In this document: one piece after another, positions 7,480 through 27,201 of the stretch
Layout: every line of letters begins with the position of its first letter
Position numbering within the stretch: the first letter of the stretch is position 1
DNA from: a plasmid
Length of the DNA stretch: 64,000 nt
Sequence record: NZ_CP104589.1
Strand: one strand, 5' to 3'
Notes under the pieces: generated by a model
Seen by the model: the letters and a program-made list of their open reading frames with translations, nothing else
The model's database searches: none
Told to the model about the DNA's origin: nothing
Translations under genes and position numbers: made by a program

Positions 7480-7482
7480 GGT

Positions 7483-8215: not shown

Positions 8216-8240
8216 TGTCGTTTTCAGAAGACGGCTGCAC
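8216..8240. repeat. class 1 integron IRi (25 bp)
   Basis: exact TGTCGTTTTCAGAAGACGGCTGCAC. Confidence 0.8.
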
Positions 8241-9431: not shown

Positions 9432-9499
9432 GGCTTGTTATGACTGTTTTTTTGTACAGTCTATGCCTCGGGCATCCAAGCAGCAAGCGCGTTACGCCG

Positions 9500-9576
9500 T
9501 GGGTCGATGTTTGATGTTATGGAGCAGCAACGATGTTACGCAGCAGGGCAGTCGCCCTAAAACAAAGTTAGCGCCC
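9500..9576. other. attI1 recombination site
   Basis: ...GCCCTAAAACAAAGTTAG immediately before the first cassette. Confidence 0.6.
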
Positions 9577-9974
9577 ATGGAAGGTATCAGCCACATCACG
9601 CTTATTGTCCGCGACCTCTCGCGCATGACCACCTTCCTTTGCGATGGTCTCGGTGCGCGAGAGGTTTATGACAGTGCTGGCCACAATTACTCGCTTTCCC
9701 GCGAGAAATTCTTTGTCCTTGGTGGCGTTTGGTTGGCCGCTATGGAGGGAGTGCCGCCATCTGAGCGCTCCTATCAGCATGTCGCCTTTCGGGTGAGTGA
9801 GTCAGATCTTGCCGTATATCAGGCAAGACTTGGGTCGCTGGGCGTGGAGATTCGCCCACCCAGGCCACGCGTGAATGGAGAGGGGCTGTCCCTGTACTTC
9901 TATGATTTTGACAACCATCTGTTTGAGCTGCACACCGGCACATTGGAGCAGCGCCTTGCCAGGTACGGAGCTGG

Positions 9975-9981
<7 letters not shown>
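9577..9981 (+). CDS. FosX/FosE-like fosfomycin resistance cassette (glyoxalase/VOC fold)
   Basis: MEGISHITLIVRDL...RPRVNGEGLSLYFYDFDNHLFELHTGTLEQRL matches the FosX family along its full length; starts 6 nt after the attI1 crossover. Confidence 0.8.
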
Positions 9982-10860
<879 letters not shown>

Positions 10861-10867
10861 CAGGCAG

Positions 10868-10944
10868 ATGCGGCATAACATGAAGTTGCAGCCGACCATC
10901 ACTCCGCTGCGCTCCGTTCTGGCGGCTGAACTTCGGCGTTAGGC
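10868..10944. other. attC of the blaVIM cassette
   Basis: ends in GTTAGGC followed by the canonical aacA4 cassette start ATCACAAAGTACAGCATC. Confidence 0.45.
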
Positions 10945-10962
10945 ATCACAAAGTACAGCATC

Positions 10963-11517
10963 GTGACCAACAGCAACGATTCCGTCACACTGCGCCTCAT
11001 GACTGAGCATGACCTTGCGATGCTCTATGAGTGGCTAAATCGATCTCATATCGTCGAGTGGTGGGGCGGAGAAGAAGCACGCCCGACACTTGCTGACGTA
11101 CAGGAACAGTACTTGCCAAGCGTTTTAGCGCAAGAGTCCGTCACTCCATACATTGCAATGCTGAATGGAGAGCCGATTGGGTATGCCCAGTCGTACGTTG
11201 CTCTTGGAAGCGGGGACGGATGGTGGGAAGAAGAAACCGATCCAGGAGTACGCGGAATAGACCAGTCACTGGCGAATGCATCACAACTGGGCAAAGGCTT
11301 GGGAACCAAGCTGGTTCGAGCTCTGGTTGAGTTGCTGTTCAATGATCCCGAGGTCACCAAGATCCAAACGGACCCGTCGCCGAGCAACTTGCGAGCGATC
11401 CGATGCTACGAGAAAGCGGGGTTTGAGAGGCAAGGTACCGTAACCACCCCAGATGGTCCAGCCGTGTACATGGTTCAAACACGCCAGGCATTCGAGCGAA
11501 CACGCAGTGATGCCTAA
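10963..11517 (+). CDS. aacA4: aminoglycoside 6'-N-acetyltransferase AAC(6')-Ib (not the -cr variant: W102 and D179 retained)
   Basis: [36 protein letters not shown]...GDGWWEEE... Confidence 0.95.
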
Positions 11518-11584
11518 CCCTTCCATCGAGGGGGACGTCCAAGGGCTGGCGCCCTTGGCCGCCCCTCATGTCAAACGTTAGCCA
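11508..11584. other. attC of the aacA4 cassette
   Basis: imperfect palindrome ending in GTTAGCC. Confidence 0.45.
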
Positions 11585-11597
11585 CCAAGAAGGTGCC

Positions 11598-12398
11598 ATG
11601 AAAACATTTGCCGCATATGTAATTACTGCGTGTCTTTCAAGTACGGCATTAGCTAGTTCAATTACAGAAAATACGTTTTGGAACAAAGAGTTCTCTGCCG
11701 AAGCCGTCAATGGTGTTTTCGTGCTTTGTAAAAGTAGCAGTAAATCCTGCGCTACCAATAACTTAGCTCGTGCATCAAAGGAATATCTTCCAGCATCAAC
11801 ATTTAAGATCCCCAACGCAATTATCGGCCTAGAAACTGGTGTCATAAAGAATGAGCATCAGGTTTTCAAATGGGACGGAAAGCCAAGAGCCATGAAACAA
11901 TGGGAAAGAGACTTGAGCTTAAGAGGGGCAATACAAGTTTCAGCGGTTCCCGTATTTCAACAAATCGCCAGAGAAGTTGGCGAAGTAAGAATGCAGAAAT
12001 ATCTTAAAAAATTTTCATATGGTAACCAGAATATCAGTGGTGGCATTGACAAATTCTGGTTGGAGGGTCAGCTTAGAATTTCCGCAGTTAATCAAGTGGA
12101 GTTTCTAGAGTCTCTATTTTTAAATAAATTGTCAGCATCAAAAGAAAATCAGCTAATAGTAAAAGAGGCTTTGGTAACGGAGGCTGCGCCTGAATATCTT
12201 GTGCATTCAAAAACTGGTTTTTCTGGTGTGGGAACTGAGTCAAATCCTGGTGTCGCATGGTGGGTTGGTTGGGTTGAGAAGGGAACAGAGGTTTACTTTT
12301 TCGCCTTTAACATGGATATAGACAACGAAAATAAGTTGCCGCTAAGAAAATCCATTCCCACCAAAATCATGGCAAGTGAGGGCATCATTGGTGGCTAA
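11598..12398 (+). CDS. blaOXA: OXA-10-family class D beta-lactamase (266 aa)
   Basis: [51 protein letters not shown]...STFKIPN...; a variant relative to OXA-10 as recalled. Confidence 0.93.
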
Positions 12399-12452
12399 CA
12401 ATTCGCTGCAGGCGCGACGGCCCTGACGGGCCGCGGCCTGAGCTCAAACGTT
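12399..12452. other. attC of the blaOXA cassette
   Basis: TAACAATTCG...GTTAAAC followed by the canonical aadA1 cassette start CATCATGAGGGAAGC. Confidence 0.4.
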
Positions 12453-12459
12453 AAACATC

Positions 12460-13251
12460 ATGAGGGAAGCGGTGATCGCCGAAGTATCGACTCAACTATC
12501 AGAGGTAGTTGGCGTCATCGAGCGCCATCTCGAACCGACGTTGCTGGCCGTACATTTGTACGGCTCCGCAGTGGATGGCGGCCTGAAGCCACACAGTGAT
12601 ATTGATTTGCTGGTTACGGTGACCGTAAGGCTTGATGAAACAACGCGGCGAGCTTTGATCAACGACCTTTTGGAAACTTCGGCTTCCCCTGGAGAGAGCG
12701 AGATTCTCCGCGCTGTAGAAGTCACCATTGTTGTGCACGACGACATCATTCCGTGGCGTTATCCAGCTAAGCGCGAACTGCAATTTGGAGAATGGCAGCG
12801 CAATGACATTCTTGCAGGTATCTTCGAGCCAGCCACGATCGACATTGATCTGGCTATCTTGCTGACAAAAGCAAGAGAACATAGCGTTGCCTTGGTAGGT
12901 CCAGCGGCGGAGGAACTCTTTGATCCGGTTCCTGAACAGGATCTATTTGAGGCGCTAAATGAAACCTTAACGCTATGGAACTCGCCGCCCGACTGGGCTG
13001 GCGATGAGCGAAATGTAGTGCTTACGTTGTCCCGCATTTGGTACAGCGCAGTAACCGGCAAAATCGCGCCGAAGGATGTCGCTGCCGACTGGGCAATGGA
13101 GCGCCTGCCGGCCCAGTATCAGCCCGTCATACTTGAAGCTAGACAGGCTTATCTTGGACAAGAAGAAGATCGCTTGGCCTCCCGCGCAGATCAGTTGGAA
13201 GAATTTGTTCACTACGTGAAAGGCGAGATCACCAAGGTAGTCGGCAAATAA
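12460..13251 (+). CDS. aadA1: aminoglycoside 3''-adenylyltransferase AadA1
   Basis: MREAVIAEVSTQLSEVVGVIERHLEPTLLAVHLYGSAVDGGLKPHSDIDLLVTV... matches AadA1 over its full length. Confidence 0.95.
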   Translation: MREAVIAEVSTQLSEVVGVIERHLEPTLLAVHLYGSAVDGGLKPHSDIDLLVTVTVRLDETTRRALINDLLETSASPGESEILRAVEVTIVVHDDIIPWRYPAKRELQFGEWQRNDILAGIFEPATIDIDLAILLTKAREHSVALVGPAAEELFDPVPEQDLFEALNETLTLWNSPPDWAGDERNVVLTLSRIWYSAVTGKIAPKDVAADWAMERLPAQYQPVILEARQAYLGQEEDRLASRADQLEEFVHYVKGEITKVVGK

Positions 13252-13379
13252 TGTCTAAAACAAAGTTAGATGCCAGATTTGGCGTTGCGTATGCTCACAG
13301 AAAATCGACAGCCGCAAGACTGTTTTTGGCAACTCATAGCCACCACTATTTCTCCTTCATACCGTAGAGGAGATTGCAC

Positions 13380-13712
13380 GTGAAGAACTGGCTCTTTCTG
13401 GCTATTGCAATATTTGGTGAGGTCGTCGCAACTTCCGCACTGAAGTCCAGCCATGGATTCACCAAGTTAGTTCCTTCTGTTGTAGTTGTGGCTGGCTACG
13501 GGCTTGCGTTCTATTTCCTCTCTCTCGCACTCAAGTCCATCCCGGTCGGCATTGCTTATGCTGTTTGGGCTGGCCTCGGCATCGTACTTGTGGCAGCTAT
13601 CGCTTGGATCTTCCATGGCCAGAAACTAGACTTGTGGGCGTTCGTTGGCATGGGACTTATCGTTAGTGGCGTCGCCGTTCTAAATCTGCTATCCAAGGTC
13701 AGCGCACATTGA
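13380..13712 (+). CDS. qacF: QacF/QacH-type SMR quaternary-ammonium efflux protein (GTG start, 110 aa)
   Basis: [33 protein letters not shown]...[10 protein letters not shown] matches QacF/H; GAGGAG RBS 7 nt upstream; IS26 begins 6 bp after the stop. Confidence 0.85.
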
Positions 13713-13718
13713 TCGGGC

Positions 13719-14538
13719 GGCACTGTTGCAAATAGTCGGTGGTGATAAACTTATCATCCCCTTTTGCTGATGGAGCTGCACATGAACCCATTCAAAGGCC
13801 GGCATTTTCAGCGTGACATCATTCTGTGGGCCGTACGCTGGTACTGCAAATACGGCATCAGTTACCGTGAGCTGCAGGAGATGCTGGCTGAACGCGGAGT
13901 GAATGTCGATCACTCCACGATTTACCGCTGGGTTCAGCGTTATGCGCCTGAAATGGAAAAACGGCTGCGCTGGTACTGGCGTAACCCTTCCGATCTTTGC
14001 CCGTGGCACATGGATGAAACCTACGTGAAGGTCAATGGCCGCTGGGCGTATCTGTACCGGGCCGTCGACAGCCGGGGCCGCACTGTCGATTTTTATCTCT
14101 CCTCCCGTCGTAACAGCAAAGCTGCATACCGGTTTCTGGGTAAAATCCTCAACAACGTGAAGAAGTGGCAGATCCCGCGATTCATCAACACGGATAAAGC
14201 GCCCGCCTATGGTCGCGCGCTTGCTCTGCTCAAACGCGAAGGCCGGTGCCCGTCTGACGTTGAACACCGACAGATTAAGTACCGGAACAACGTGATTGAA
14301 TGCGATCATGGCAAACTGAAACGGATAATCGGCGCCACGCTGGGATTTAAATCCATGAAGACGGCTTACGCCACCATCAAAGGTATTGAGGTGATGCGTG
14401 CACTACGCAAAGGCCAGGCCTCAGCATTTTATTATGGTGATCCCCTGGGCGAAATGCGCCTGGTAAGCAGAGTTTTTGAAATGTAAGGCCTTTGAATAAG
14501 ACAAAAGGCTGCCTCATCGCTAACTTTGCAACAGTGCC
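13719..14538 (+). mobile_element. IS26 (820 bp) with 14-bp IRs GGCACTGTTGCAAA
   Basis: exact IS26 left-end and right-end sequences; length 820 bp. Confidence 0.93.
13782..14486 (+). CDS. tnp26: IS26 transposase Tnp26 (IS6 family, 234 aa)
   Basis: MNPFKGRHFQRDIILWAVRWYCKYGISYRELQEMLAERGVNVDHSTIYRWVQRYAPE... Confidence 0.93.
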   Translation: MNPFKGRHFQRDIILWAVRWYCKYGISYRELQEMLAERGVNVDHSTIYRWVQRYAPEMEKRLRWYWRNPSDLCPWHMDETYVKVNGRWAYLYRAVDSRGRTVDFYLSSRRNSKAAYRFLGKILNNVKKWQIPRFINTDKAPAYGRALALLKREGRCPSDVEHRQIKYRNNVIECDHGKLKRIIGATLGFKSMKTAYATIKGIEVMRALRKGQASAFYYGDPLGEMRLVSRVFEM

Positions 14539-14725
14539 GCTTTGCAAGGGCAAAGCCCGCGTGACCATCGACACGGCGTTGATTCTCGGTAAGGCCTTTG
14601 GCACAGGCCCCGATTACTGGCTGGAGCTGCAACAAGCGGTTGATATTTGGGACGCGCTGCACAGCGAAAAACGAAAGGAACGGCTCGAAAGCATCGTGCC
14701 GTTGATGAAAATGGTAGCAGCATAA
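14539..14725 (+). pseudogene. 3' fragment of an XRE/HigA-family antitoxin gene truncated by IS26
   Basis: ...ALILGKAFGTGPDYWLELQQAVDIWDAL... is the typical HigA C-terminal helix pattern; the N-terminal part is replaced by IS26. Confidence 0.55.
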
Positions 14726-14909
14726 AAAGCGAAGCCCCGATGCTTTCCAACTTGGCGGGCGGAAAAGCGATCAGGGCTACATCACAGTGTGGGCGGTTTC
14801 GTTAGCAACTTGGCGGGAGCTAACGAGGTGGCCGATTGCCTAGCGGGGCATGGGGCACACGTGTCTATTATAGCGCGGGTGCCCCTCTAATCAAGTAGTA
14901 GGGGTTACA

Positions 14910-15629
14910 GTGGCACAACAACAAGCGGCACAACTGGCGCTATTCGACCAGACACAAGAGGCCAACACGTATCACGACGCCGGCCGGCGCGGGTTCTTCT
15001 CGCTGCTCACCAGCAAGGACAACGGCGACAAGCGGCAGTCCTCCCACCCTCTCAGCGAAATGGCTACCGTCCTGGGCATGGTGGACTCGACCCGTGACAC
15101 CTGGCTGTCACAAGCCGAGTTCTTCCGCCCTAATCGCCGCGTGGTCAATCTGCTACGTATTGGGCTGATGTTCGTGGACCTCGATACCTACCGGGTGCCC
15201 TGGGCGACAGGGCGAACGCCAGAGGAACAAGCAGCCGGCGTTATCTACTTCTGTCAAGCCGAAGGCCTGCCCCTGCCTTCGCTGATGATCTATTCCGGCC
15301 GAGGCCTGCAACTGAAATGGTTGCTCGATGCGCCAATCCCTCGCCAGGCCCTGCCCCGCTGGAACGCCTGCCAACGCCACCTGGTAGACAAGCTGGCCGA
15401 GCTGGGCGCCGATCCTGCCGCCAAGGATGCCAGCCGCGTGTTGCGCCTGGTCGATACGGTCAACACCAAGAGCGGGAACATCTGCCGCGTGGTCCACGTC
15501 CAGGAGGAAGCCGGCGAACCCGCCCGCTACAACTTCGAGTATCTTTGCGAAATGCTGCTGCCCGTGGCTCGCTGGGACATTGAAGCGCAACAAAAGCGCC
15601 GGCGCGACCGACAACTAACCCTGATACCT
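14910..15629 (+). pseudogene. hypothetical protein gene interrupted by the Tn5563-like transposon; a possible 3' remainder lies at 21885-21986
   Basis: 278-aa ORF whose last codons are encoded by the transposon IR; the third frame after the right IR continues for about 34 codons. Confidence 0.5.
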
Positions 15630-15669
15630 GGGGTTTGGGGAGCAATGGAACCAAAAACCAACGTAAGCC

Positions 15670-16602
15670 CTACCAACGCTTTTCGGTGTCTTCTTCCCAG
15701 GCGCCCATCTCGACAAAACAGTTGCGCATGTCGGCCTCCTGGCTGATCTCGGTCAGCAGGTCATGCACGCTCTTGTCCAGCTCATCGTCGCTCCGATACG
15801 GAATGGTCAACTCATAGTGGCCGGCATCCAGCCGCTTCATGCCATAGGGCTCCAGGCAGTAGCGCTCAATGTTCTCCGTGGCCCGCTTCCGGCCGCGCAC
15901 GAACTTGCTGTTATTCACCACCGCGAGGCGCAGGGTGACGGTGGCCACCCGCTCGGCGGCGGGCGGCTCTGCCGGCGACGCGGCCGAAGGCTGCTGGTCG
16001 CGTGACCTGGCGCTCTTCTGGTACGCGCCGATCTCGACACCACGGTGGCGCAGGTAGCTGTACAGCGTGCTCTTGGAGATGTGCAGCTTCTCGCCGATCG
16101 CGCTGACGCTCAGGCGACCTTCGCGGTAGAGGGTTTCGGCCGCCATGGCGGTGGCCTCAGCCTTGGCTGGCAGGCCCTTGGGACGGCCACCGATCCGGCC
16201 ACGCGCCCGTGCGGCCGACAGACCCGCCTGAGTCCGCTCGCGGATCAGCTCGCGCTCGAACTCCGCCAGCGAGGCGAACAGGTTGAACACCAGGCGGCCT
16301 TGGGCGTGGGTGGTGTCGATGGGGTCATTCAGGCTCTGTAAGCCGACCTTGCGCTCTGCCAGCTCGCCGACCAACTCGACCAGGTGCTTGAGGGAACGCC
16401 CAAGGCGATCCAGCTTCCAGATCACCACGGCATCACCCGGCCGCACGTTGGCCAGCAGTTTGTCCAACTCCGGCCGGGCGCTTTTCGCGCCGCTGGCGAT
16501 GTCTTGGTAGATGCGTTCGCACCCGGCCTGTTTCAGGGCATCGACTTGTAGGTCGGCTTTCTGATCCCGAGTGCTCACTCGCGCATAACCGATCTTCATC
16601 AA
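15670..16602 (-). CDS. tnpR: serine resolvase with long C-terminal extension (310 aa; ISXc5/Tn5044-type long TnpR)
   Basis: MMKIGYARVSTRDQKADLQVDALKQAGCERIYQD... resolvase N-terminal domain plus HTH, followed by a 120-aa extension. Confidence 0.85.
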   Translation of the reverse strand: MMKIGYARVSTRDQKADLQVDALKQAGCERIYQDIASGAKSARPELDKLLANVRPGDAVVIWKLDRLGRSLKHLVELVGELAERKVGLQSLNDPIDTTHAQGRLVFNLFASLAEFERELIRERTQAGLSAARARGRIGGRPKGLPAKAEATAMAAETLYREGRLSVSAIGEKLHISKSTLYSYLRHRGVEIGAYQKSARSRDQQPSAASPAEPPAAERVATVTLRLAVVNNSKFVRGRKRATENIERYCLEPYGMKRLDAGHYELTIPYRSDDELDKSVHDLLTEISQEADMRNCFVEMGAWEEDTEKRW

Positions 16603-16800
16603 AAGTACTGTTTACTCGACTACGTTAGTAATAGTTGAACTTTGATTAAGCGTACCAGTTATTTGAACCGTAGCGCGGGGAGCTTAACGAACCGAGCCAT
16701 TCCTCGATAGAGTTCGGCAAAACCTTCGTTTTGTCGAACCATTGCATCGCCCTTTGTGATTGGCGTATAAACACACAAACACCTATTAGCGGAGAACGCT

Positions 16801-17040
16801 ATGAATACCATTCGCTGGAATGTCGCCGTCTCGGCCGACACCGACCAGTCGCTTCGGATGTTTCTGGCCAGCCAGGGCGGCGGCCGTAAGGGCGACCTGT
16901 CGCGCTTCATCGAAGAAGCGGTACGGGCACACATCCTGGAGCTGAGCGCTGAGCAGGCCAAGGCCGCTAACGCCCATCTGAGTGAGGCAGAATTGACCAA
17001 CGCGGTTGACGAAGCGCTCGACTGGGCACGTAAGCGCTGA
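16801..17040 (+). CDS. putative ribbon-helix-helix antitoxin (79 aa)
   Basis: small ORF directly upstream of and overlapping (ATGA) the PIN gene; lies between res/tnpR and tnpA as in Tn3-family toxin-antitoxin modules. Confidence 0.6.
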   Translation: MNTIRWNVAVSADTDQSLRMFLASQGGGRKGDLSRFIEEAVRAHILELSAEQAKAANAHLSEAELTNAVDEALDWARKR

Positions 17041-17450
17041 TGCGGGTCGTGTTGGATACCAACATCCTGTTCAGCGCCCTGATCTCGCCACATGGCGCGC
17101 CCGATGCGATCTACCGTGCCTGGCGGGCGGCGCGTTTCGAGGTGGTGACCTCGCGGATGCAACTCGATGAAATTCGTCGAGCCAGCCGCTATCCCAAGCT
17201 TCAGGCCATCCTACAGCCCGCCAAGGTGGGCGCCATGATCAATAACCTGCAACGGGCTGTGGTACTGGAGCGCCTGACCATCGAGGTCGAAGCCGATGAT
17301 CCGGATGACTCGTTTTTGCTGGCCATGGCCTTGGCGGGCGATGCGGACTACCTGGTAACCGGTGATCGCCGCGCCGGCCTGCTGCAACGCGGGCACATCG
17401 AACGCACGCGGATCGTCACGCCCGCCGTGTTCTGCGTCGAGGTGCTGTGA
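17040..17450 (+). CDS. PIN-domain toxin (VapC-like, 136 aa)
   Basis: MRVVLDTNILFSAL...EVVTSRMQLDEIRRA...LVTGD: the acidic PIN residues are present. Confidence 0.75.
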   Translation: MRVVLDTNILFSALISPHGAPDAIYRAWRAARFEVVTSRMQLDEIRRASRYPKLQAILQPAKVGAMINNLQRAVVLERLTIEVEADDPDDSFLLAMALAGDADYLVTGDRRAGLLQRGHIERTRIVTPAVFCVEVL

Positions 17451-17453
17451 TCA

Positions 17454-20447
17454 ATGCCGGTCGGTTTTCTGACTCAAGAGCAACGCGACGGTTTTGGCCG
17501 CTATGTTGATTCGCCCAGCCGTGAAGAGCTGGAACGTTACTTCCACCTGAGCGATGAAGACCGTGAAGCCATCCAGGTGCTGCGGGGTAACCATAACCGT
17601 CTGGGTTATGCCGTTCTGCTGACCACCGTCCGCTTCGTTGGCGTTCTGCCGGACAAGCCCGCCGCCGTGCCGGTGGAAGTCCTGCAGGTGCTTTGCCGAC
17701 AACTGGCGATTCCAGACCCCGACTGCCTCCAGCGCTATAGCGATCATCGCCGCTGGATACATGCCACCGATATTCAGAACCGCTTTGGCTATCGTCATTT
17801 CACCGATCCGGGCATCGGCTTTCGCTTGAGCCGCTGGCTGTATGCCCTCTGCTGGACGGGCACCGACCGGCCGGGAGTGCTGTTTGAGCGAGCCACCTCG
17901 TGGCTGTTCACACAGAAAGTCCTCCTGCCTGGTGTGTCTCAACTAGAGCGCTTTATCGCCCAGTTGCGCAGTCGGGTCGAAGAACGCCTCTGGTTTACGC
18001 TGGGCCGCAGCGTGACTGAGGAACAGCGATTGCAACTGCAAGACTTGCTGACGGTGGCCGAAGGCAACCGCAGCTCCCGGCTGGATCAATTGCGCTCCGG
18101 CCCGGTCATGGTCAGTGGCCCCGCGTTGATTCGGGCACTGCGCCGGCTCGATGACGTGCGCGGCATCGGCATCACCTTGCCGGCGGCGGCGCACATCCCT
18201 CCCAGCCGTATCGCCGCCCTGGCCCGCTTCGCCAACACGGCCAAGGTCACCGCGATTAATCGGCTGCCGGCGTCGCGGCGGATGGCGACACTGGTGGCCT
18301 TCGCACTCTGCCTGGAGGCGACTGCGCACGACGACGCACTGGAAGTCCTGGAGGCCTTGCTGCGCGACCTGTTCAGCAACGCGGAGAAGGCCGACAAGAA
18401 AGCCCGCATGCGCAGCCTGAAAGACCTGGATCGGTCGGCCGCGACGCTCGCCGCCGCGTGCAAGGTCGTGCTGGACAGCTCGATCAGCGATGACAACGTG
18501 CGCGCCCGGCTGTTCAACGACCTGCCGAGGACCACCCTGGAAAAGGCCCTGGAAGAGGTCAACGCGCTGATCCGCCCGGTAGATGACGTCTATTTTCTTG
18601 CATTGGAAGCGCGCTACCGCAGCGTGCGCCGCTTCCTGCCCGACCTGCTCAAGCACATCCGCTTCGGCTTCAGCCCGGCCGGCAAGGGCGTGGCGGCTAG
18701 TCTGGAGTGGCTGCAACTGAACCTGCCGCGCCGGAAGCCAGAGGATGACGCGCCGCAGGAGATCGTGGCCAAGGCTTGGCAGAAGCACATCACCCGCGAA
18801 GATGGCTCCCTCGACATGGGTGCCTATGTGTTCTGCACGCTCGATGCGCTGCGCACGGCCCTGCGCCGCCGCGATGTCTTCGTCTCGCCCAGTTGGCGCT
18901 ATGCCGACCCGCGCCTTGGCCTGCTCGACGGTGCCGAATGGCTGGCGGCGCGACCGATCATCTGCCGGTCACTGGGCCTGACCATCGACGCCAAAACCAC
19001 CCTGGACGCCTTGTCCGTCGAGCTGGATGCAACCTGGCTGGCAGTAGCCGCGCGCCTGCCCGACAACCCGGCGATTCAACTGAGCGAGAACACCGAGGGC
19101 AAGACCGAACTGTCGCTCGGGGCGCTGGACAAGCTGGACGAGCCCTGCTCGTTGCTGCAACTGCGGGCGGCCGTGTCTGACCTGATGCCGCGTGTCGATC
19201 TGCCGGAAATCCTCTTGGAAATCGCCGCCCGCACTGGCTTTTCCGAGGCCTTCACCCATGTCTCCGAACGCAATGCACGCGCCGACAACCTGGTCACCAG
19301 CCTCTGCGCGGTGCTGTTGGGCGGGGCCTGCAACACCGGCCTGGAGCCCTTGATCCGCACCGACAACCCGGCGCTGCGCCGTGACCGGCTGTCCTGGGTC
19401 AGCCAGAATTATATCCGCGACGACACCCTGTCAGCGGCTAACGCCATCCTGGTCGGAGCGCAAAGCCAACTGGAACTGGCCCAAGTCTGGGGTGGCGGCG
19501 AGGTCGCCTCCGCCGATGGCATGCGCTTCGTCGTACCGGTGCGCACCGTGCATGCCGGCCCCAATCCGAAGTATTTCGGCACCGGCCGGGGTGTCACCTG
19601 GTACAACCTGATTTCCGACCAATTCTCCGGCCTCAACGCCATCACCGTGCCCGGCACGCTGCGCGACAGCCTGGTGTTGCTGGCGGTCGTGCTGGAACAG
19701 CAGACCGAGTTGCAGCCGACGCAAATCATGACCGACACCGGGGCCTACAGCGATGTGGTGTTCGGGCTCTTCCGCCTACTTGGCTACCACTTCAGTCCGC
19801 GGCTGGCCGATGTCGGCGGTACCCGCTTCTGGCGCACGCGCCCGGACGCGGACTACGGCAAGCTCAACGGGCTGGCCCGCCAGTCGGTCAAACTCGACCT
19901 GATCGCCGAGCACTGGGACGACCTGCTGCGCCTGGCCGGCTCGCTCAAACTCGGCCGGGTGCCGGCGACTGGCATCATGCGCACGCTGCAAACGGGAGAT
20001 AGACCCACCCGGCTGGCCCAGGCGCTGGCCGAATTCGGGCGGATCGAAAAGACTCTGCACACGTTGACCTATATCGACGACGAGTCCAAGCGCCGCGCCA
20101 CCCTGACCCAGTTGAACCGAGGCGAAGGCCGGCACAGCCTGGCCCGCGCCGTGTTCCACGGCAAACGCGGCGAGCTCCGCCAGCGCTACCGCGAAGGCCA
20201 GGAAGACCAGCTCGGTGCTCTGGGCCTGGTGGTGAACATCATCGTGCTGTGGAACACCCTCTACATGACGGCGGCCGTGGAACGGCTCAAGCAGCACGGC
20301 TATCCAGTGCTGGAAGAGGATTTGGCCCGGCTATCGCCGCTGATCTACGAGCACATCAACATGCTCGGGCGGTATTCCTTTGCGGTACCGGAAGAAGTTG
20401 CGCGCGGCGAGCTGCGGCCACTGCGTAATCCAGACGACGACCTGTGA
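17454..20447 (+). CDS. tnpA: Tn3-family transposase TnpA (997 aa)
   Basis: Tn3-family DDE transposase architecture; shares blocks with the Tn21 TnpA in this window. Confidence 0.93.
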   Translation: MPVGFLTQEQRDGFGRYVDSPSREELERYFHLSDEDREAIQVLRGNHNRLGYAVLLTTVRFVGVLPDKPAAVPVEVLQVLCRQLAIPDPDCLQRYSDHRRWIHATDIQNRFGYRHFTDPGIGFRLSRWLYALCWTGTDRPGVLFERATSWLFTQKVLLPGVSQLERFIAQLRSRVEERLWFTLGRSVTEEQRLQLQDLLTVAEGNRSSRLDQLRSGPVMVSGPALIRALRRLDDVRGIGITLPAAAHIPPSRIAALARFANTAKVTAINRLPASRRMATLVAFALCLEATAHDDALEVLEALLRDLFSNAEKADKKARMRSLKDLDRSAATLAAACKVVLDSSISDDNVRARLFNDLPRTTLEKALEEVNALIRPVDDVYFLALEARYRSVRRFLPDLLKHIRFGFSPAGKGVAASLEWLQLNLPRRKPEDDAPQEIVAKAWQKHITREDGSLDMGAYVFCTLDALRTALRRRDVFVSPSWRYADPRLGLLDGAEWLAARPIICRSLGLTIDAKTTLDALSVELDATWLAVAARLPDNPAIQLSENTEGKTELSLGALDKLDEPCSLLQLRAAVSDLMPRVDLPEILLEIAARTGFSEAFTHVSERNARADNLVTSLCAVLLGGACNTGLEPLIRTDNPALRRDRLSWVSQNYIRDDTLSAANAILVGAQSQLELAQVWGGGEVASADGMRFVVPVRTVHAGPNPKYFGTGRGVTWYNLISDQFSGLNAITVPGTLRDSLVLLAVVLEQQTELQPTQIMTDTGAYSDVVFGLFRLLGYHFSPRLADVGGTRFWRTRPDADYGKLNGLARQSVKLDLIAEHWDDLLRLAGSLKLGRVPATGIMRTLQTGDRPTRLAQALAEFGRIEKTLHTLTYIDDESKRRATLTQLNRGEGRHSLARAVFHGKRGELRQRYREGQEDQLGALGLVVNIIVLWNTLYMTAAVERLKQHGYPVLEEDLARLSPLIYEHINMLGRYSFAVPEEVARGELRPLRNPDDDL

Positions 20448-20459
20448 TCCCCCTAAACG

Positions 20460-20672
20460 CTATGAGCAACACCCAAGCTGCTGCTGGATCGGCGGGCACT
20501 TCACCGAGCCGAACGAACAGAAAACGCAGCAATCCCCTGGGTTGGGGCGCAGCAGCGCCTTGCAGTTGCTGCACTCGTAATAGAACTGGCAGGCGTCCGT
20601 GGGCATGGTTTCCGGCTTGGCGAAGCCGCAGCGCGGGCAAGTCAGCACGGACTCAAGGACAATGGCGCTCAT
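20460..20672 (-). CDS. Cys-rich GDCC-motif putative metal-binding protein (70 aa)
   Basis: CPRCG...CSNC...GDCCVFCS; small proteins of this kind are found in mer loci. Confidence 0.55.
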   Translation of the reverse strand: MSAIVLESVLTCPRCGFAKPETMPTDACQFYYECSNCKALLRPNPGDCCVFCSFGSVKCPPIQQQLGCCS

Positions 20673-20679
20673 CGTGACC

Positions 20680-20955
20680 TCACTTCTGCACTGTGGAGGG
20701 GTATCCCGCGTTCGCGGTCGCCTCAGTCAGTGCCTCGGGCTGGGCCTTATCGGGATCGTAGGTGACGGTCGCCGTCTTCTGGTCGAAATTGACCTGGACG
20801 TCACTCACGCCGGACACCTTCTCCAGCGACTTCTTGACCGTGATCGGACAGAGTCCGCACGTCATGTTCTGCACGTCGAGCGTGACGGTTTTCGGGGGAG
20901 CCGCCAGCGCCACGAAGGGCAAGGCGAAAAGCACGGCGATCAGCAGTTTGCGCAT
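20680..20955 (-). CDS. merP: periplasmic mercury-binding protein MerP
   Basis: signal peptide plus the GMTCxxC-type motif (QNMTCGLCPITVKKSLEKV). Confidence 0.85.
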   Translation of the reverse strand: MRKLLIAVLFALPFVALAAPPKTVTLDVQNMTCGLCPITVKKSLEKVSGVSDVQVNFDQKTATVTYDPDKAQPEALTEATANAGYPSTVQK

Positions 20956-20967
20956 GGTTAATCTCCT

Positions 20968-21324
20968 TCAGTAGAACAGCGGGGCGAGCCACGGCACGGC
21001 CAATAGGCCGAGCAGCAGCACGCTGACGATCCAGAACACGAGTCGCTGTCGCACGAGCGTGCGCGGATCGGCGCAGGGTGTACCTGGCGTACAAACCTGT
21101 GGCACCAGGTAGAGCTTGCGGAATGCCAATCCCAGGAACAGTAGAGTCAACCCGATTAAGAGGGGGCGTAGTGGCTCCATCATGGTCAGAGCGCCCACCC
21201 ACGTACCGCCGACACCGAGTGCCAACAGCACCAGTGGCCCGACACAGCACACCGACGCACCGATGGCGGTCAGCGAACTCGCGACCAGCGAGCCTTTCCC
21301 GGTGAGTTGCATCCCCATTCCCAT
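20968..21324 (-). CDS. merT: mercuric ion transporter MerT
   Basis: CCVGPLVLLALG first helix Cys pair plus a second Cys pair; typical MerT topology. Confidence 0.85.
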   Translation of the reverse strand: MGMGMQLTGKGSLVASSLTAIGASVCCVGPLVLLALGVGGTWVGALTMMEPLRPLLIGLTLLFLGLAFRKLYLVPQVCTPGTPCADPRTLVRQRLVFWIVSVLLLGLLAVPWLAPLFY

Positions 21325-21362
21325 CTCCTGAGCCTGATTGCCTAGGTGCTATTCTAAACTCC

Positions 21363-21381
21363 GTACCAAAGTACGGAATCA
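21363..21381. promoter_or_regulatory. MerR operator dyad (CCGTAC-N4-GTACGG) in the merR/merT divergent promoter
   Basis: CTCCGTACCAAAGTACGGAA between merT and merR. Confidence 0.5.
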
Positions 21382-21389
21382 AGGAGAAA

Positions 21390-21791
21390 GTGATGGCCAC
21401 AGAGCTGACCATTGGCAAGCTGGCAGACGCCGCCGGGGTGAACGTCGAGACGATCCGCTACTACCAGCGACGCGGGCTGCTGGATGAACCAGCCAAACCC
21501 TTGGGTGGCCATCGGCGCTATCCGGTGGACATGGTGAAGCGACTGCGTTTCATCAAGCGGGCTCAGGCGCTGGGTTTCACGCTCTCGGAAGTCGGTGGAC
21601 TGCTGACGCTGGATGAGTCGTGCGCCTGTGCCGAAACGCGAGCACGGGCTGCACGCAAGCTCGCGTTGATCGAGCAGAAGATGGCCGACTTGGTCGTCAT
21701 GCAGCAACTGTTAGGCGAACTGGTGCAGCAATGTGATGCGGGAGACGGCGGAACGATCTGCCCGATCATCGAGGCACTGATCAGAGAGTAA
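21390..21791 (+). CDS. merR: MerR-family metal-responsive regulator
   Basis: N-terminal HTH LTIGKLADAAGVNVETIRYYQRRGLL plus C-terminal Cys residues. Confidence 0.8.
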   Translation: MMATELTIGKLADAAGVNVETIRYYQRRGLLDEPAKPLGGHRRYPVDMVKRLRFIKRAQALGFTLSEVGGLLTLDESCACAETRARAARKLALIEQKMADLVVMQQLLGELVQQCDAGDGGTICPIIEALIRE

Positions 21792-22018
21792 TGCCTGGCG
21801 GGTGAGCTGGAGATCGGAAAGCCCCTTTACGGTGGGATTCAGAGCTTACGTTGGTTTTTGGTTCCATTGCTCCCCAAACCCCACCACCTGGCCAGCGGCA
21901 TCTATGATGACCGGCCAATCACGCTGCGGTGGCCAGCACGGCGGACGGTAGTTCGGCGCATCAGGAATCGCTAGGGGCGAGTCGATGCCGAGGCCAAGTT
22001 CGGAAAGAATATTTTTCG

Positions 22019-23509
22019 TCATGCTGATCTTTGTCGCAGTTCTGCCAATCGGATGAAGCCATCCCAGGCCGGGTGGTAGTCACCTTCACTTATGCGCGCT
22101 CTGGCTTCTTCGACCCAAAGCCTGCGGACCTCGCTACTTTCTTCGAAGAAGCGCAGTTTGGCCGTCAGCCGATCGATCACCAGCAGGGCCGGATGCTCTG
22201 TCGTCAGGTGCTTACCCGAACTGGATGGGCGGTAGCGTGCCAGTTCAAGCGATTTGAGGTGGCGCAAGCTACCGAGAGACCACACATGATCCTCACTTTC
22301 GATATCCCGGTGCTGGGTACAGAACAGGCAACCGGCAGCATTGATGCAGTCGGGTCGCGGACCATTCTTCGGCATCGTGCCCACTGGTTCAGGTGTGGCC
22401 GATACACATCTACCAGGAGCAGGAGGTGAAAGGGACGGATCGGTTTGCTGATGGAAGCGCGTAATTTCCACCATAGCGATCTGCGGATGGGGGTCGGCAT
22501 ATACGCGTATCAGCGTTTGCACCGTATGCTGGGCCAACTCCGCAACCTGTTGGGGATTCTGGGACTCCCGAAGCAACCAGTTGATGCGCGTCCCGCGCAG
22601 TTTTCGCGGTCTCACTATCGGTATGCCAAGCTCGCGGCAGATGCGCGTAACGTTCGTGAACTGCGTCGCCTCTTCTAGGATTCGTCCCCCGCTACGTATA
22701 AGCGGAAAGAGCAAACCATCCGGCTCATTGGGAAACCATTCGGAACGCCATTCGAGATAGCGCTCGAACCACTCTCGATAACTGGCAAAGATCTCGAATA
22801 GCACTTCTCCTTCCCGTCGATTTTTGTAGGTACGTACCTGGTAGCCGTCTATGTGGCTGGTGTAATGAAACTGCTCAACCCGCAGGGTATGTGCTTGCTG
22901 GAGGTTCAGACCGGTCTGGGCGATGAACATCAGCAATTCACTCTCGATCCGTAAATTGACGATGGGGAAACGGGTCCGCAGTGTCCGATCTGCATCGTGG
23001 GCGGCACGCGCCGCCAGGGATGCTTCGATTTGCGCTTGGTTTTGCGGCCTGGTACGGCGGGCCGCTACTTTCTCGGGGCTCTGCAATCCCGACCATAGTT
23101 CCAGCACTTGGCCGGTGCGTAACGAAATACAAACTGGGAGGGGGGCCATTGTCCCCCTCCAGGTCAATGCCTCGCATACGTCAGCTAGAAGGTGTCCGAA
23201 TGCGAAGGTGTTTTGCAGATTCTGCTTGTCCGCTTTGCTCGTATGTACCTTGCCTTTGCCGCGCGGCTTGCGAATACGTGTGCTCTTGCTCAGGCTTGCT
23301 TGGCGGTCCAATGCTCGGTCCAGCATCGTCGCCGTGAGCCTGGTGAGATCGTACAGGGACCCATCGCTGAAATTGCGTTCGACTCGATGACGCTGGAGCA
23401 AGTGATCGGTCCAACGAATGAACGTGTCGGCCGCCGTCTCGAGACTGAGATTCACGTTTTCTGAATCGATCCAGGCAAAGAATCGGCGCAATGCACTGAT
23501 CTTGTTCTG
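22019..23509 (-). pseudogene. tyrosine recombinase B, C-terminal 496 codons; gene split by the IS256-family insertion
   Basis: R...H..R/...LAQHTVQTLIRVYADPH catalytic-tail pattern; reading frame continuous with 24854-25085 once the IS and one TSD copy are removed. Confidence 0.6.
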
Positions 23510-23517
23510 CACCGAGA

Positions 23518-24845
23518 GAGGGTGTGCAGAATTTTGTGTAACCGGGGTTGGGGTTATTGCTGCGGCAGCCGGTCTTCGTAGCTGATCGTAAAGCGCGTCA
23601 GCGCCGCCTTCCAGTCACGGATCGGCATCGTCCATTTCTTGCTGATGTTGCGTAGCGCCAGGTAGAAGAGTTTCATCAGCGCCTCGTCGCTGGGGAACGA
23701 GCCGCGGTTCTTGGTGATCTTGCGCAAGCTCATGTTCACCGATTCGATGGCGTTGGTGGTGTAGATCACCTTGCGGATCTCTGGCGGGAAGTCGAAGAAC
23801 GGCGTGATCCTGGCCCAGTTGCGTCGCCAGGACTGGCCAATCGGCAGGTAGTCGTCATCCCACTTGGCCTCGAACTCGCCAAGGCGCAGTTCGGCCTCGT
23901 CAGCCGTGCTGGCTTGGTAAATCCGTTTCAGGTCAGCGGCGACTTCAGCCCGCCGCTTCCAGGACACGTAGTTCAGGCTGTGCCTGACCATGTGCACGAT
24001 GCACAGCTGCACGCTGGTGTGCGGGAACACCGCCTCGATGGCCTCGGGGAAGCCCTTCAGGCCATCCACGCAGGCAACGAAGATGTCCTGCACACCGCGG
24101 TTGCGCAGCTCGGTCACCACCTGCAACCAGAACTTGGCGCCCTCGTTCTGGGCGATCCATAGGCCGAGGATTTCCTTCTCGCCAGCCAGATTGATGCCCA
24201 GCGCCAGATAGACCGCCTTCACCCGCACGGCGCCCTCGCGCACCTTGGTGTGGATGCAGTCGAGGTAGACGATGGGATACACCGCATCGAGCGGGCGCGA
24301 CTGCCAGGACTTGACCTCATCGGCCACGGCATCGGTCACTGAGGAGATCAGGCTGGGCGACACCTCGGCGCCGTACATTTCCTGCAAGTGCGCCTGGATC
24401 TCGCGCACCGTCATGCCGCGGGCATACAGCGAAAGGATCTTGTCGTCGAAGCCCGTCCAGCGGGTCTGGTGCTTCTCGACGATCTGCGGATCGAAGGTGC
24501 CATGCCGGTCGCGCGGCACCTCGATGGGCAGTTCGCCGAACTCGCCCTTGAGTTTCTTCCTGCTGAAACCGTTGCGCGTGTTGCCGGTCGGGTTGCTGAC
24601 CGGCTGATGCTTGTCGTGGCCCAGGTGGTGGGTCAACTCCGCATCCAGTGCACGCTCGACCAGCTTCTTGGTCAGCTGCTTGAGGATGCCGTCGGCACCG
24701 ATCAGGTCTTCAGGTTTCTGGTAGTTGGCCAGGAGCTGATCCAGCAGCTCGTCGGTGATGGGGTGTTTCGTCTTGCTCATGGTGTCTCCGGTGCGGAGCG
24801 ACAGTGTCGCTCATGAGCCGGTTACACAAAAATTCGGACACCCTC
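23518..24845 (-). mobile_element. IS256-family insertion sequence (1328 bp) with 8-bp TSD CACCGAGA
   Basis: imperfect 28-bp IRs (GAGGGTGTGCAGAATTTTGTGTAACCGG and GAGGGTGTCCGAATTTTTGTGTAACCGG); identical 8-mers at 23510-23517 and 24846-24853. Confidence 0.8.
23554..24780 (-). CDS. IS256-family (Mutator-type) transposase, 408 aa
   Basis: MSKTKHPITDELLDQLL...; DDE transposase of the IS256 family. Confidence 0.9.
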   Translation of the reverse strand: MSKTKHPITDELLDQLLANYQKPEDLIGADGILKQLTKKLVERALDAELTHHLGHDKHQPVSNPTGNTRNGFSRKKLKGEFGELPIEVPRDRHGTFDPQIVEKHQTRWTGFDDKILSLYARGMTVREIQAHLQEMYGAEVSPSLISSVTDAVADEVKSWQSRPLDAVYPIVYLDCIHTKVREGAVRVKAVYLALGINLAGEKEILGLWIAQNEGAKFWLQVVTELRNRGVQDIFVACVDGLKGFPEAIEAVFPHTSVQLCIVHMVRHSLNYVSWKRRAEVAADLKRIYQASTADEAELRLGEFEAKWDDDYLPIGQSWRRNWARITPFFDFPPEIRKVIYTTNAIESVNMSLRKITKNRGSFPSDEALMKLFYLALRNISKKWTMPIRDWKAALTRFTISYEDRLPQQ

Positions 24846-24853
24846 CACCGAGA

Positions 24854-25085
24854 AGCGACTTCCGCCACCAGCAAGGTCGTCAGTCATGTGCTCATGCAGC
24901 TGCGTCACCAGCTCGAAACGTTCCGGCAAGGGACTGCCGAGTTCGCCCTGCGCGATCTGGCGGCCCACATGCTTCACCTTTGCTGCTGCACCTCCGCGAA
25001 ACAGCAGCGGCCGGAGGTCCCAGGGCGTTTCAGTGGCCCCATACTCAAGCATCGGGAAAGTGAGGTCGAATTCGGAACTATCCAT
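24854..25085 (-). pseudogene. tyrosine recombinase B, N-terminal part (start ATG overlaps the stop of recombinase A: ATGGATAG)
   Basis: MDSSEFDLTFPMLEYG...; frame analysis across the IS insertion. Confidence 0.5.
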
Positions 25086-26367
25086 CGTGCCGCGCCCCAG
25101 CGCCGATCCCGCTAAATGCCGCCATGAAGCTATTTGAGAGGGCTTGTTTGATCGGCAGTGCCTGTACGAATCGGATGTATTTGAAGGTGGTGGCTTCAGA
25201 GTTAGGCCCATGGAGCAACGCGTCGCTGACCGTCGCAATTACAATAGCGACATCGGCACAAGCCGATAGCGCCAGACGTGCCAATTCGGTACCGAAGGTG
25301 CAGCGCGACTGATGGAAGCGGAATTTACGGAGCACCTGTAGTTCTGCTTTGACGCCCCGTTTTCGAAACTCGGACATCTCAACATTCACAGCAGATGACT
25401 GATCGGTGCCGCGCCTGCCATAGGCGTTACCAAAGCGGGTCAAGAACAGCAAATCACGATTCTCGGGCGAGGCTTTCGCCTCTCGTTCCATCCTCCGCCA
25501 GCCTTTGGCATATTCCAGCAATTCATCACGCAACGCTTCGGGTATCCAGACCTGGCCAGTCACACCGAATTTCGTGTGCACTGGCGGAGCTGCGCCTGGA
25601 CCAACTGCAAGGCGTAGAAGCCCTTCAGCGGAAGGGTCGGGGGCGGCGCGCTCCAGAGACTGAATCTTGAGATCACAGATGCTGCCGAGCCGCATCCCGG
25701 TAAAAAATCCAAGGGCCAACATGAGGTAGAGCTCGGGCGTGGCGTTCTCTGCGGCGAAATCCAGAATTGCATCGCGATCGGTCTCCGAGACTGGCAACAG
25801 CCCATCTTCAAGCGTTTGGCCTGGGCGCTTACGGTTCGGGATGCTGAGGTCGGTGGTGGTTCCGCTGATCGTTCGCTCGAACCCCACCCGGTCGAAGTAT
25901 TTAACGACGTAGGGTTTTTCCCGCCACAGCTGGACGTGTGGAGAAAGAAGCTCCCTATGCCTTACCCACCGATAGAACATGATGCAATTGCGCATGTACT
26001 CAGACGCCGTGGATGGGCCGATCTGGCCGGCATCGCGCATCTTGATCAACGCCCCTCGGTATAGCACCAGGCAGCGGTCAGCTTTGCGAGCGGGAAACTC
26101 GAACCACTGCAAATCACGAGATTCAAGAAATTTAGCGTAATTGAGAAGGCCATTCATGTTACTGGCAACGGTCTTAAGAGAAGCGTCACCAGTCGTTGCT
26201 CGCTCCACTGCCCACAGGTTTGCCTCCCTCCAAGGTGCATAGTCTGCCCAAAAGATTTGGGGCAAGCCCTCAATGGATGGCCGGCTGCTACTGGGGGAGT
26301 ATGCGACGGCGTTCTCTCTGCGCACGAGGTAATGGGGCACGAAATGAATGCGCTCTAGCGTCGCCAT
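25078..26367 (-). CDS. tyrosine recombinase A (phage-integrase family, 429 aa)
   Basis: box I ...GFFTGMRLGSI..., box II RFHQSRCTFGTE, LLHGPNSEATTFKYIRF. Confidence 0.75.
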   Translation of the reverse strand: MATLERIHFVPHYLVRRENAVAYSPSSSRPSIEGLPQIFWADYAPWREANLWAVERATTGDASLKTVASNMNGLLNYAKFLESRDLQWFEFPARKADRCLVLYRGALIKMRDAGQIGPSTASEYMRNCIMFYRWVRHRELLSPHVQLWREKPYVVKYFDRVGFERTISGTTTDLSIPNRKRPGQTLEDGLLPVSETDRDAILDFAAENATPELYLMLALGFFTGMRLGSICDLKIQSLERAAPDPSAEGLLRLAVGPGAAPPVHTKFGVTGQVWIPEALRDELLEYAKGWRRMEREAKASPENRDLLFLTRFGNAYGRRGTDQSSAVNVEMSEFRKRGVKAELQVLRKFRFHQSRCTFGTELARLALSACADVAIVIATVSDALLHGPNSEATTFKYIRFVQALPIKQALSNSFMAAFSGIGAGARHDG

Positions 26368-26416
26368 TCAACGCCCCTGGGACGCTTAACAATGTCCATA
26401 GATAGAACTCAATAGC

Positions 26417-26752
26417 TTAGGCGTCCGCACTATACAACTTACTCTTATCGATTGAGTAGATGAAGATGCGCGGGCTCAGCTCCTCCAGAATGGCCATCAT
26501 TCTGTTGCTGAGAGACTGATACAGCGGATAGTTGGATGAGAAAATTTTTACTCGGCCTTGGGCGGCCATCTCTCGCAGCTCGAAAACGGGCTGCCCCATC
26601 TTGATCCCGAGCGCCTTGGCGGCATCATTGCGGCTTACAACGGCGCCGTCATTGTTGCTGGCCACCACCACCGGATGATCCCTCAGCCAGGGCTCGAACA
26701 GCGTCTGCGCCGAGCAGTAGAAAGCGTTGGCGTCGACAAGGGCGATGGTCAT
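26417..26752 (-). pseudogene. umuC: umuC/rulB-type Y-family polymerase gene, N-terminal about 111 codons only, truncated by the recombinase element
   Basis: MTIALVDANAFYCSAQTLFEPWLRDHPVVVASNNDGAVVSRNDAAKALGIKMGQPVFEL...FSSNYPLYQSLSNRMMAILEELSPRIFIYSID then diverges. Confidence 0.75.
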
Positions 26753-27177
26753 GTCAAACCGTGCAGCACCCACATGCACACCCCCCAAACCTCCAGCTCC
26801 TCGCCATCGCCCAGCACTAACGGCGGGTACTGGTCGTTCTCAGCCACCAACATCGCCCGCCCCTCGCGGTCGTACTGCAACCGCTTGACCAAGAACTCAG
26901 CACCGATAATCGCCAGCACCACATTCCCTGGCTGGGAGCGTTGTGCCTTGTCCACCACCAGGATATCGCCGTCGAAGATGCCGGCCCCTGTCATAGAATT
27001 GCCAGAGGCCTGGAAGAGGAAAATCGAGGAGGATTTTCCCATCCCCACACGTTGATCCAGGGACAGGTCCGGCTGCTGGTAGTCAGCGGCCGGCGAGGGA
27101 AAGCCGCAGCTAGCCTGGCCGCCGAAAGCGGTCGGTGCTGGTGATGGTGAATGGATGCCGAGATAGTGAGCGCGCAT
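26749..27177 (-). CDS. umuD: UmuD (LexA-like S24 peptidase, translesion synthesis)
   Basis: ...QASGNSMTGAGIFDGDILVVDKA...VVLAIIGAEFLVKRL; start overlaps umuC. Confidence 0.85.
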   Translation of the reverse strand: MRAHYLGIHSPSPAPTAFGGQASCGFPSPAADYQQPDLSLDQRVGMGKSSSIFLFQASGNSMTGAGIFDGDILVVDKAQRSQPGNVVLAIIGAEFLVKRLQYDREGRAMLVAENDQYPPLVLGDGEELEVWGVCMWVLHGLT

Positions 27178-27185
27178 TGCTGATA

Positions 27186-27201
27186 CTGTCTATATATACA
27201 G
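27186..27201. promoter_or_regulatory. LexA/SOS box 9 bp upstream of umuD
   Basis: CTGTCTATATATACAG versus the consensus CTGT-N8-ACAG. Confidence 0.6.

Follow-up and report, generated by a model that had tools for sequence, protein, structure and literature searches.

A probable decayed remnant of an SE-PaeBT2436-type element in the umuC gene of a VIM-integron plasmid backbone

We analyzed a 64,000-nucleotide stretch of a plasmid (sequence record NZ_CP104589.1, one strand; hereafter the window, with positions counted from its first nucleotide), in which the umuC gene of an SOS-controlled umuDC operon is interrupted next to genes for tyrosine recombinases. Positions 21883-26447 of the window correspond, with a probability that we put at about 90%, to the intA-proximal (left) end of an SE-PaeBT2436-type element, present here as a decayed and immobile remnant within umuC. 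SEs are strand-biased circularizing integrative elements with the core gene order intA-tfp-intB-srap. According to Idola et al. (2023, PMC10214605), SE-PaeBT2436 is defined by the Tfp/Srap pair WP_034039553/WP_023443007 and occupies positions 354557-370244 (15,688 bp) of pBT2436, where it carries tmexCD-toprJ. A preliminary description of the window had proposed a site-specific integrative element with two consecutive tyrosine recombinases as the cause of the umuC truncation. The kind of element was correctly recognized, but its core consists of four genes rather than two, and the annotation of the region is corrected accordingly to a published umuC-targeting SE. The element is thus already known and its novelty is low; what is new is the backbone and the decayed state in which it is found.

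Identity of the element

Element DNA is retained in two segments, one (21882-23517) with 100% and the other (24843-26452) with 99.9% identity to plasmids from Klebsiella variicola and Pseudomonas aeruginosa. With the insertion sequence (IS) that separates them removed, the interval 21882-26452 gave matches of 99.9-100% to many plasmids from Klebsiella, Pseudomonas, Citrobacter, Raoultella and Enterobacter. In these reference plasmids, four overlapping genes code for WP_034039555 (429 aa), WP_034039553 (576 aa), WP_034039551 (679 aa) and WP_023443007 (154 aa), and are followed by genes for an AAA ATPase, by tnfxB and by tmexCD-toprJ. Several papers in the tigecycline-resistance literature describe this same unit, inserted in umuC, as int-int-hp-hp-(recF)-tnfxB-tmexCD-toprJ.

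The 429-aa tyrosine recombinase abutting umuC that the preliminary description had reported was recovered as intA, a Phage_integrase-like open reading frame (ORF) with 0 differences from the reference coding sequence (L001). The overlap of its stop codon with the start codon of the next gene was likewise confirmed and is the same in the reference copies (Table 1). The second recombinase, described earlier as a protein of about 627 aa, does not correspond to any ORF of that size; it is the 576-aa tfp gene of the intact copies, split here by an IS. When the two fragments were rejoined in silico, leaving out the IS and one copy of the duplicated target, a 576-aa protein identical to WP_034039553 was obtained. 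The stub of intB (MTKNIL...AAGQVV) is the N-terminus of the reference IntB (L001) and continues directly into the inverted repeat of a transposon.

The window copy thus resembles SE-PaeBT2436 in the 99.9-100% nucleotide identity of all retained DNA, in the identity of IntA and of the restored Tfp, in its left terminus and in the point of insertion in the YSIDE codons of umuC. It differs in that only the left 3.2 kb are left, with an IS in tfp and with intB cut at codon 47, and in that srap, the cargo and the right end lie outside the window. The core is incomplete: intA is intact, tfp is split, about 47 codons of intB remain and srap is absent, and a comparison with the reference element recovered neither srap nor the reference cargo nor the rest of the element within the window. 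Judged by this gene content, the copy descends from a member of SE-PaeBT2436 but has been reduced to a remnant, and is not a functional member. Since tfp is disrupted, intB truncated and neither srap nor attR is present in cis, we consider it to be an immobile remnant that would be unable to move by itself.

Table 1. Coordinates of the features associated with the element and the umuDC operon (window positions).
Feature	Position	Strand	Remarks
Tn5563-like Tn3-family mercury transposon	15630..21882	.	43-nt terminal inverted repeats; truncates intB
intB stub	21883..22022	-	First ~47 codons of the 679-aa recombinase WP_034039551; start overlaps tfp stop
tfp 3' fragment	22019..23517	-	Codons 78-576; Phage_integrase, E 1.4e-5, below Pfam cut-off
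ISPa1328-like IS (IS256 family)	23518..24845	-	1,328 bp, within tfp; break in homology to reference
tfp 5' fragment	24846..25085	-	Codons 1-80; start overlaps intA stop by ATGGATAG
intA	25078..26367	-	Intact tyrosine recombinase, 429 aa; identical to WP_034039555
umuC' ORF	26417..26752	-	111 codons; umuC 26448-26752 (to IYSID); 26417-26447 element-derived
attL junction	26430..26452	-	Target core AATCGA (26448-26453), then left terminus TAAGAGTAAGTTGTATAG from 26447 downwards
umuD	26749..27177	-	Intact, 142 aa; Peptidase_S24, E 8.6e-22
LexA (SOS) box	27186..27201	.	CTGTCTATATATACAG; exact CTGT-N8-ACAG, 8 nt before umuD ATG

Truncation of umuC and the target site

The intact umuD gene with a LexA box upstream was confirmed, the distance to the start codon being 8 nt. 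Palindromes of the form CTGT-N8-ACAG occur three times in the 64-kb window, as compared to an expected number of 0.76. The umuC gene starts at 26752, overlapping the stop codon of umuD. Its ORF diverges from umuC and has the length stated in the preliminary description, which had counted about 111 N-terminal umuC codons, but just about 102 of these codons belong to UmuC; the remaining nine (KSKLYSADA) and the stop codon are foreign and derive from the inserted element. Consistent with this, the product tracks intact UmuC through ...IFIYSID and is divergent thereafter, and its match to the IMS family is limited to profile positions 1-98 of 148. A tblastn search of the 64-kb window with a full-length UmuC homolog (L005) matched residues 1-103 only, so that the 3' part of umuC, which the preliminary description had suggested should be sought elsewhere on the replicon, was not found within the window.

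An empty counterpart of the site was identified in a backbone that is 98.7% identical to that of the window (L015) and that encodes an identical UmuD protein beside an intact umuC gene of 432 aa, uninterrupted across the position of the junction. In the alignment, this umuC reads ...ATCTACTCAATCGACGAATG (IYSIDECF), while the window reads ...ATCTACTCAATCGA up to the junction and TAAGAGTAAG beyond it. The intact gene in so similar a backbone shows that umuC owes its truncation to an insertion; that the gene might be short by nature, which had been named as refuting the earlier interpretation, is thereby refuted. The empty site is also present in L017. A pattern scan for empty or scarred sites found none in species-representative genomes and a single intact site in a metagenome contig. 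For the window allele, a clean pair of empty and occupied sites is therefore available. The umuC gene is inactivated here, its predicted product lacking the catalytic Asp/Glu pair and all that follows it.

Window position 26447 corresponds to pBT2436 position 370244, where Idola et al. place the end of SE-PaeBT2436. The left terminus (TAAGAGTAAGTTG...) adjoins five different flanks, which all end in (T/A)(C/T)(C/T)GA and encode IYSID (window), QYSID (K. variicola), VYSVD, PYSID and YCID (pBT2436), each ending in the GA of the Asp codon. The target core of SE-PaeBT2436 thus lies in the codon for the Asp of YSIDE, a conserved motif of UmuC. In the K. variicola copy, the 6-bp sequence CATCGA is repeated at attR and is followed by the 3' part of umuC. 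This repeat and the shared junction are consistent with the published SE model, in which a 6-bp attB core remains beside the left terminus and the right terminus takes a 6-bp footprint with it. SEs are described as having short imperfect terminal inverted repeats (motifs C and C'); when the left terminus was compared by eye with the right terminus of the reference in reverse complement, 11 of 18 positions agreed. The right terminus itself (GGCTGTTCTTCTTTCCTTTA) was not found in the window in a search allowing up to three mismatches.

All features of the umuDC operon and the element are located on the minus strand. Because the element is co-directional with umuDC and situated downstream of a LexA-controlled promoter, SOS-driven read-through from this promoter into intA is plausible. 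A promoter scan gave no sigma-70-like site, not even upstream of umuD, and is hence uninformative on read-through into intA.

Recombinase-like proteins of the core

The match of IntA to the Pfam family Phage_integrase is weak (E 6.8e-6, below the Pfam cut-off), but IntA carries the residues R-H-R-Y: the Arg of the motif GMRLGS was aligned with the box I Arg of XerA, the motif HQSR is found at residues 352-355, and the C-terminal LLHGPNSEATTFKY was picked out by eye. Single-sequence and profile searches with IntA and Tfp against the PDB yielded no usable recombinase alignment except for this weak match of IntA to XerA. The third protein of the core, IntB, shows R...HxxR...H...Y-like motifs by eye in the reference copy.

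For Tfp, an alignment of 30 homologs was examined. The position of the first catalytic Arg, as aligned to XerD by eye, is occupied by a nearly invariant Asn (Asn282) and the position of the first His by Arg382, while R385, H408 and Y417 are invariant and were aligned with R247, H270 and Y279 of XerD. Only the comparison to XerD by hhalign aligned the C-terminal catalytic region of Tfp, and with low probability. The Tfp of the SE-PaeBT2436 clade could thus supply a tyrosine in trans rather than act purely structurally. The C-terminal 150 aa contain the invariant residues C448, C468, C474, C477 and H488, arranged as C-x19-C-x5-C-x2-C...H. Because this Cys cluster is invariant among the homologs, the C-terminal part, which had been described as an unusual extension of the second recombinase, is a conserved domain of the Tfp family. 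Full-length homologs with 50-56% identity over 98% of the length were also obtained from sources named as Betaproteobacteria (Cupriavidus, Pseudoduganella, Polaromonas, Collimonas, Herminiimonas, Herbaspirillum and Paraburkholderia); Idola et al. (2023, PMC10214605) reported no tfp-srap blocks outside the Gammaproteobacteria.

Comparison with other recombinase-bearing elements

The preliminary description had likened the element to the integrase-bearing islands (ILEs) inserted in rulB/umuC. A family link does exist, in that Idola et al. (2023, PMC10214605) list WP_004573996 and WP_004574005, proteins of the ILE on pGRT1, among the Tfp/Srap orthologs; the proteins of this ILE that are tabulated there have 525 aa and 138 aa. 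In the rulB ILEs (integron-like elements ILE-FH1, ILE-FH4, ILE-FH5 and that of pGRT1; Rhodes et al., 2014, PMC4542609), the four genes at the left end also follow the order recombinase, protein without a Pfam match, recombinase and small protein, and are co-directional in rulB/umuC, downstream of a LexA-controlled promoter. The lineage and the insertion site are different, however. Their IntA is only 24% identical to that of the window (E 9e-7) and their Tfp gave no BLAST hit. They insert between SNND and G near codon 35-42 with a GAT repeat, as compared to insertion between YSID and E at codon 101 for the window element. Furthermore, ILEs of the Rhodes type start with a 385-aa XerD-like gene and have the terminus CTGAGGG, whereas the terminus in the window is TAAGAG.

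Tn554 (tnpA-tnpB-tnpC) and the RIT elements share with the window element the tandem arrangement of tyrosine recombinases, one of which is large. Tn554 additionally has a small auxiliary protein and a 6-bp footprint, but no counterpart to Tfp. RIT elements differ in having three catalytic recombinases and no demonstrated target specificity; the SE core, in contrast, contains four genes, of which one lacks the first Arg and one codes for a small protein, and its termini are short.

Insertions that damaged the element

The IS within tfp is 94.4% identical to ISPa1328. Its transposase gene (23554-24780; Transposase_mut, E 9e-120) lies between inverted repeats of 28 nt, and an 8-bp target duplication, CACCGAGA, flanks the IS at 23510-23517 and 24846-24853.

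At the other end, the Tn5563-like transposon contains tnpR, a toxin-antitoxin pair, tnpA, merP, merT and merR. Its boundary at 21882/21883 forms the present end of the element, and the transposon is not element DNA. The flanks of the transposon (TACCT and ACCAC) show no 5-bp duplication. The block 14539-21882, which comprises fragments of higA and rep in addition to the transposon, recurs with 100% identity in pWTJH17 (NZ_CP073083). The right flank of the transposon differs again there, and both plasmids lack a 5-bp target duplication. As the flanks are unlike and without a duplication, replicative transposition or cointegration is to be expected rather than simple insertion, and we infer that the transposon arrived in this manner. 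Going by the comparison with pWTJH17, a small rep::Tn5563-like plasmid may have undergone cointegrate-type fusion more than once.

Farther to the left, a second copy of the Tn5563-like inverted repeat, with an 88% match, was observed at 8068-8110. It lies within a resistance mosaic (4481-14538) that begins inside traN. The mosaic includes a Tn3-family transposon with an inverted repeat at 4481, tnpA at 4513-7479 and a resolvase gene at 7483-8157, a class 1 integron with intI1 at 8418-9431 and cassettes matching VIM, OXA-10-family and aadA genes, a truncated qacE-delta1, and IS6100 at 13764-14486.

Alternative explanations

Could the DNA to the left be the cargo of a larger, still intact mobile element? 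The preliminary description had assigned the higA fragment and the gene hit by the Tn5563-like transposon to the cargo, and an intact element of this kind would comprise the transposon, the higA fragment, IS6100 and the VIM integron. SEs and GInts do gather resistance genes, and the resistance mosaic directly adjoins the element. Yet, this DNA begins at the very transposon end that cuts intB at codon 47 without a 5-bp duplication, tfp is split by the IS, and all four genes are reported to be essential. Moreover, the window lacks srap, the right terminus and the distal part of umuC, the left block recurs at 100% identity in the unrelated context of pWTJH17, and the inversion proposed below would leave attL and attR in inverted orientation. 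The transposon, the rep and higA fragments, IS6100 and the integron showed no similarity to the known cargo of the element. We therefore consider an intact larger element to be very unlikely. An assignment to the GInts (ginABCD islands), in which two catalytic recombinases are followed by the non-catalytic GinC and the small GinD, had been our first reading of the annotated order integrase, integrase, hypothetical protein and small protein, a superficially identical layout. GInts are also site-specific, with imperfect flanking repeats, and Bardaji et al. (2017, PMC5385486) describe a requirement for all four genes and a circular intermediate. This reading was dropped on account of the gene order and the catalog entry, and is extremely improbable: the protein without the full set of catalytic residues is the third in GInts but the second here, where Asn replaces the first catalytic Arg of WP_034039553, a protein listed as a Tfp paired with the Srap WP_023443007, while the catalytic-like motifs are seen in the third. 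GinC/GinD and Tfp/Srap form separate protein clusters according to Idola et al. (2023, PMC10214605). To the proposal that the genes are ordinary XerC/XerD, shufflon or RIT-type recombinases unrelated to the truncation, or that umuC is naturally short, we give next to no credence. The Pfam matches are indeed weak (E ~1e-5, below the cut-off), but the break in umuC coincides to the base with the element terminus, a 432-aa umuC exists in the backbone with 98.7% identity, this terminus occurs next to five different umuC-like flanks, and the gene set is not that of three catalytic recombinases between long inverted repeats. The intact umuC and the shared terminus refute the proposal.

Some points weigh against the identification as an SE-PaeBT2436 remnant, or limit how far it reaches. 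The published characterization of Tfp as lacking RHRY fits the Tfp of the SE-PaeBT2436 clade only in part, given its invariant Arg, His and Tyr. The mechanism of recombination is taken from the literature. The copy is incomplete, so that the former presence of srap, tmexCD-toprJ or a right end cannot be demonstrated. Finally, the inversion and the position of the missing half are based on the sequence of a relative and not on the source replicon; exact look-ups of three products specific to the junctions (UmuC', the IntB stub and truncated TraN) retrieved no record.

Proposed history and the missing half

By the published mechanism, the four co-transcribed genes of an intact SE (intA, tfp, intB and srap) would recombine attL with attR into a circular intermediate, which would integrate at a 6-bp core in umuC. 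In the history that we propose for the window, an SE would have integrated into an intact umuC gene of a Rep3/ParAB/TraN plasmid-type backbone, and the ISPa1328-like IS would then have split tfp. Subsequently, the Tn5563-like transposon would have struck intB at codon 47, in the course of an event by which the stretch from intB to traN was inverted.

The proposed inversion is derived from a comparison with the contig JALKGU010000025.1 (GCA_024520255.1), which matches the window at 37177-26454 (99.99%) and at 1-3336 (99.97%). On this contig, umuD and the counterpart of the window gene at 523-1512 are co-directional and 14.5 kb apart, whereas they are located on opposite strands in the window. 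Because of this difference in orientation, the window appears to carry an inversion relative to its closest backbone, with the probable end points in traN (~4480) and intB (21883). The 14.5 kb that follow umuC in the relative, with genes for an acetyltransferase, a DEAD helicase, HU, a UvrD-like helicase, AAA_5 and VWA proteins, are outside the window. A megablast search of PLSDB retrieved no close relative of the backbone or of the umuC allele.

The comparison yields a concrete prediction for the other half of the element. Together with the 3' part of umuC, it should be located about 14.5 kb to the left of window position 1; attR, srap and the cargo, which is tmexCD-toprJ in the reference copies, would likewise lie to the left of that position. 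The distal part of umuC is predicted to begin with CGAATGTTTTGCC (ECFASLAGV...) and to be joined to the SE right terminus and the 6-bp footprint.

SEs of the SE-PaeBT2436 type spread tmexCD-toprJ, and thereby tigecycline resistance, among plasmids of Pseudomonas, Aeromonas and Enterobacterales. The remnant would indicate that the core of such an element reached a previously unsampled VIM-integron plasmid backbone and decayed there.

Further elements and traces in umuC

The sister backbone JALKGU010000025.1 (L014) is element-free and reads ATCTAC----TCGACGAATG at 10720-10730, which corresponds to window positions ~26448-26456. Here, a 4-bp deletion (AATC) is found exactly at the 6-bp crossover core and shifts the reading frame of umuC; it is the sole indel in a 2.4-kb alignment to the intact site in L015. 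We tentatively suggest that the deletion may be a scar of SE activity, resulting from imprecise loss of an element or from abortive integration, which would represent a mutagenic, umuC-inactivating footprint that persists after the SE is lost; the related idea that Tfp donates a tyrosine in trans is put forward with the same reserve. SEs have been reported not to leave empty sites. If correct, the scar would be natural evidence that SEs can inactivate umuC even once they are gone.

Other elements were observed in the same umuC allele. The sequence CP129981.1 (L013 10490-10580 and 10649-15692), with a backbone that is 100% identical over 7.8 kb, carries a Rhodes-type ILE/SE immediately after SNND (codon 35), with a mer operon as cargo and an IntA that is 84% identical to that of pGRT1. 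In a metagenome contig (L016 3470-4883), a gene for a 389-aa integrase with 34% identity to that of pGRT1 follows GIKM (codon ~52). With the window included, three recombinase elements thus use three sites, at different conserved motifs, in one umuC allele. The AATC deletion and the targeting by three elements add to the view of umuC/rulB as a hotspot for such elements, and are the only points here that possibly merit follow-up.

In the K. variicola plasmid pJNQH579-2 (L006 17913-25654), three 3' fragments of umuC were observed beyond the right end of the tmexCD2 element, along with a further recombinase module of 445, 977 and 148 aa in a Tn554-like layout. This arrangement suggests nested insertions of different elements into successive copies of umuC.

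Additional observations

The window contains an unrelated integrase gene in the backbone at 43356-44546 (plus strand), coding for a 396-aa P4-type integrase (NCBIfam PRK09692, E 8e-43). As for the two remaining CTGT-N8-ACAG matches, one (9444-9459) is located 13 nt before the start codon of intI1. The other (60316-60331) is located 8 nt before a 422-aa TnpB/IS605 OrfB-type ORF (59040-60308, minus strand) with an OrfB_IS605 and a Cas12f1-like TNB domain, and may represent a LexA box preceding a gene for TnpB.

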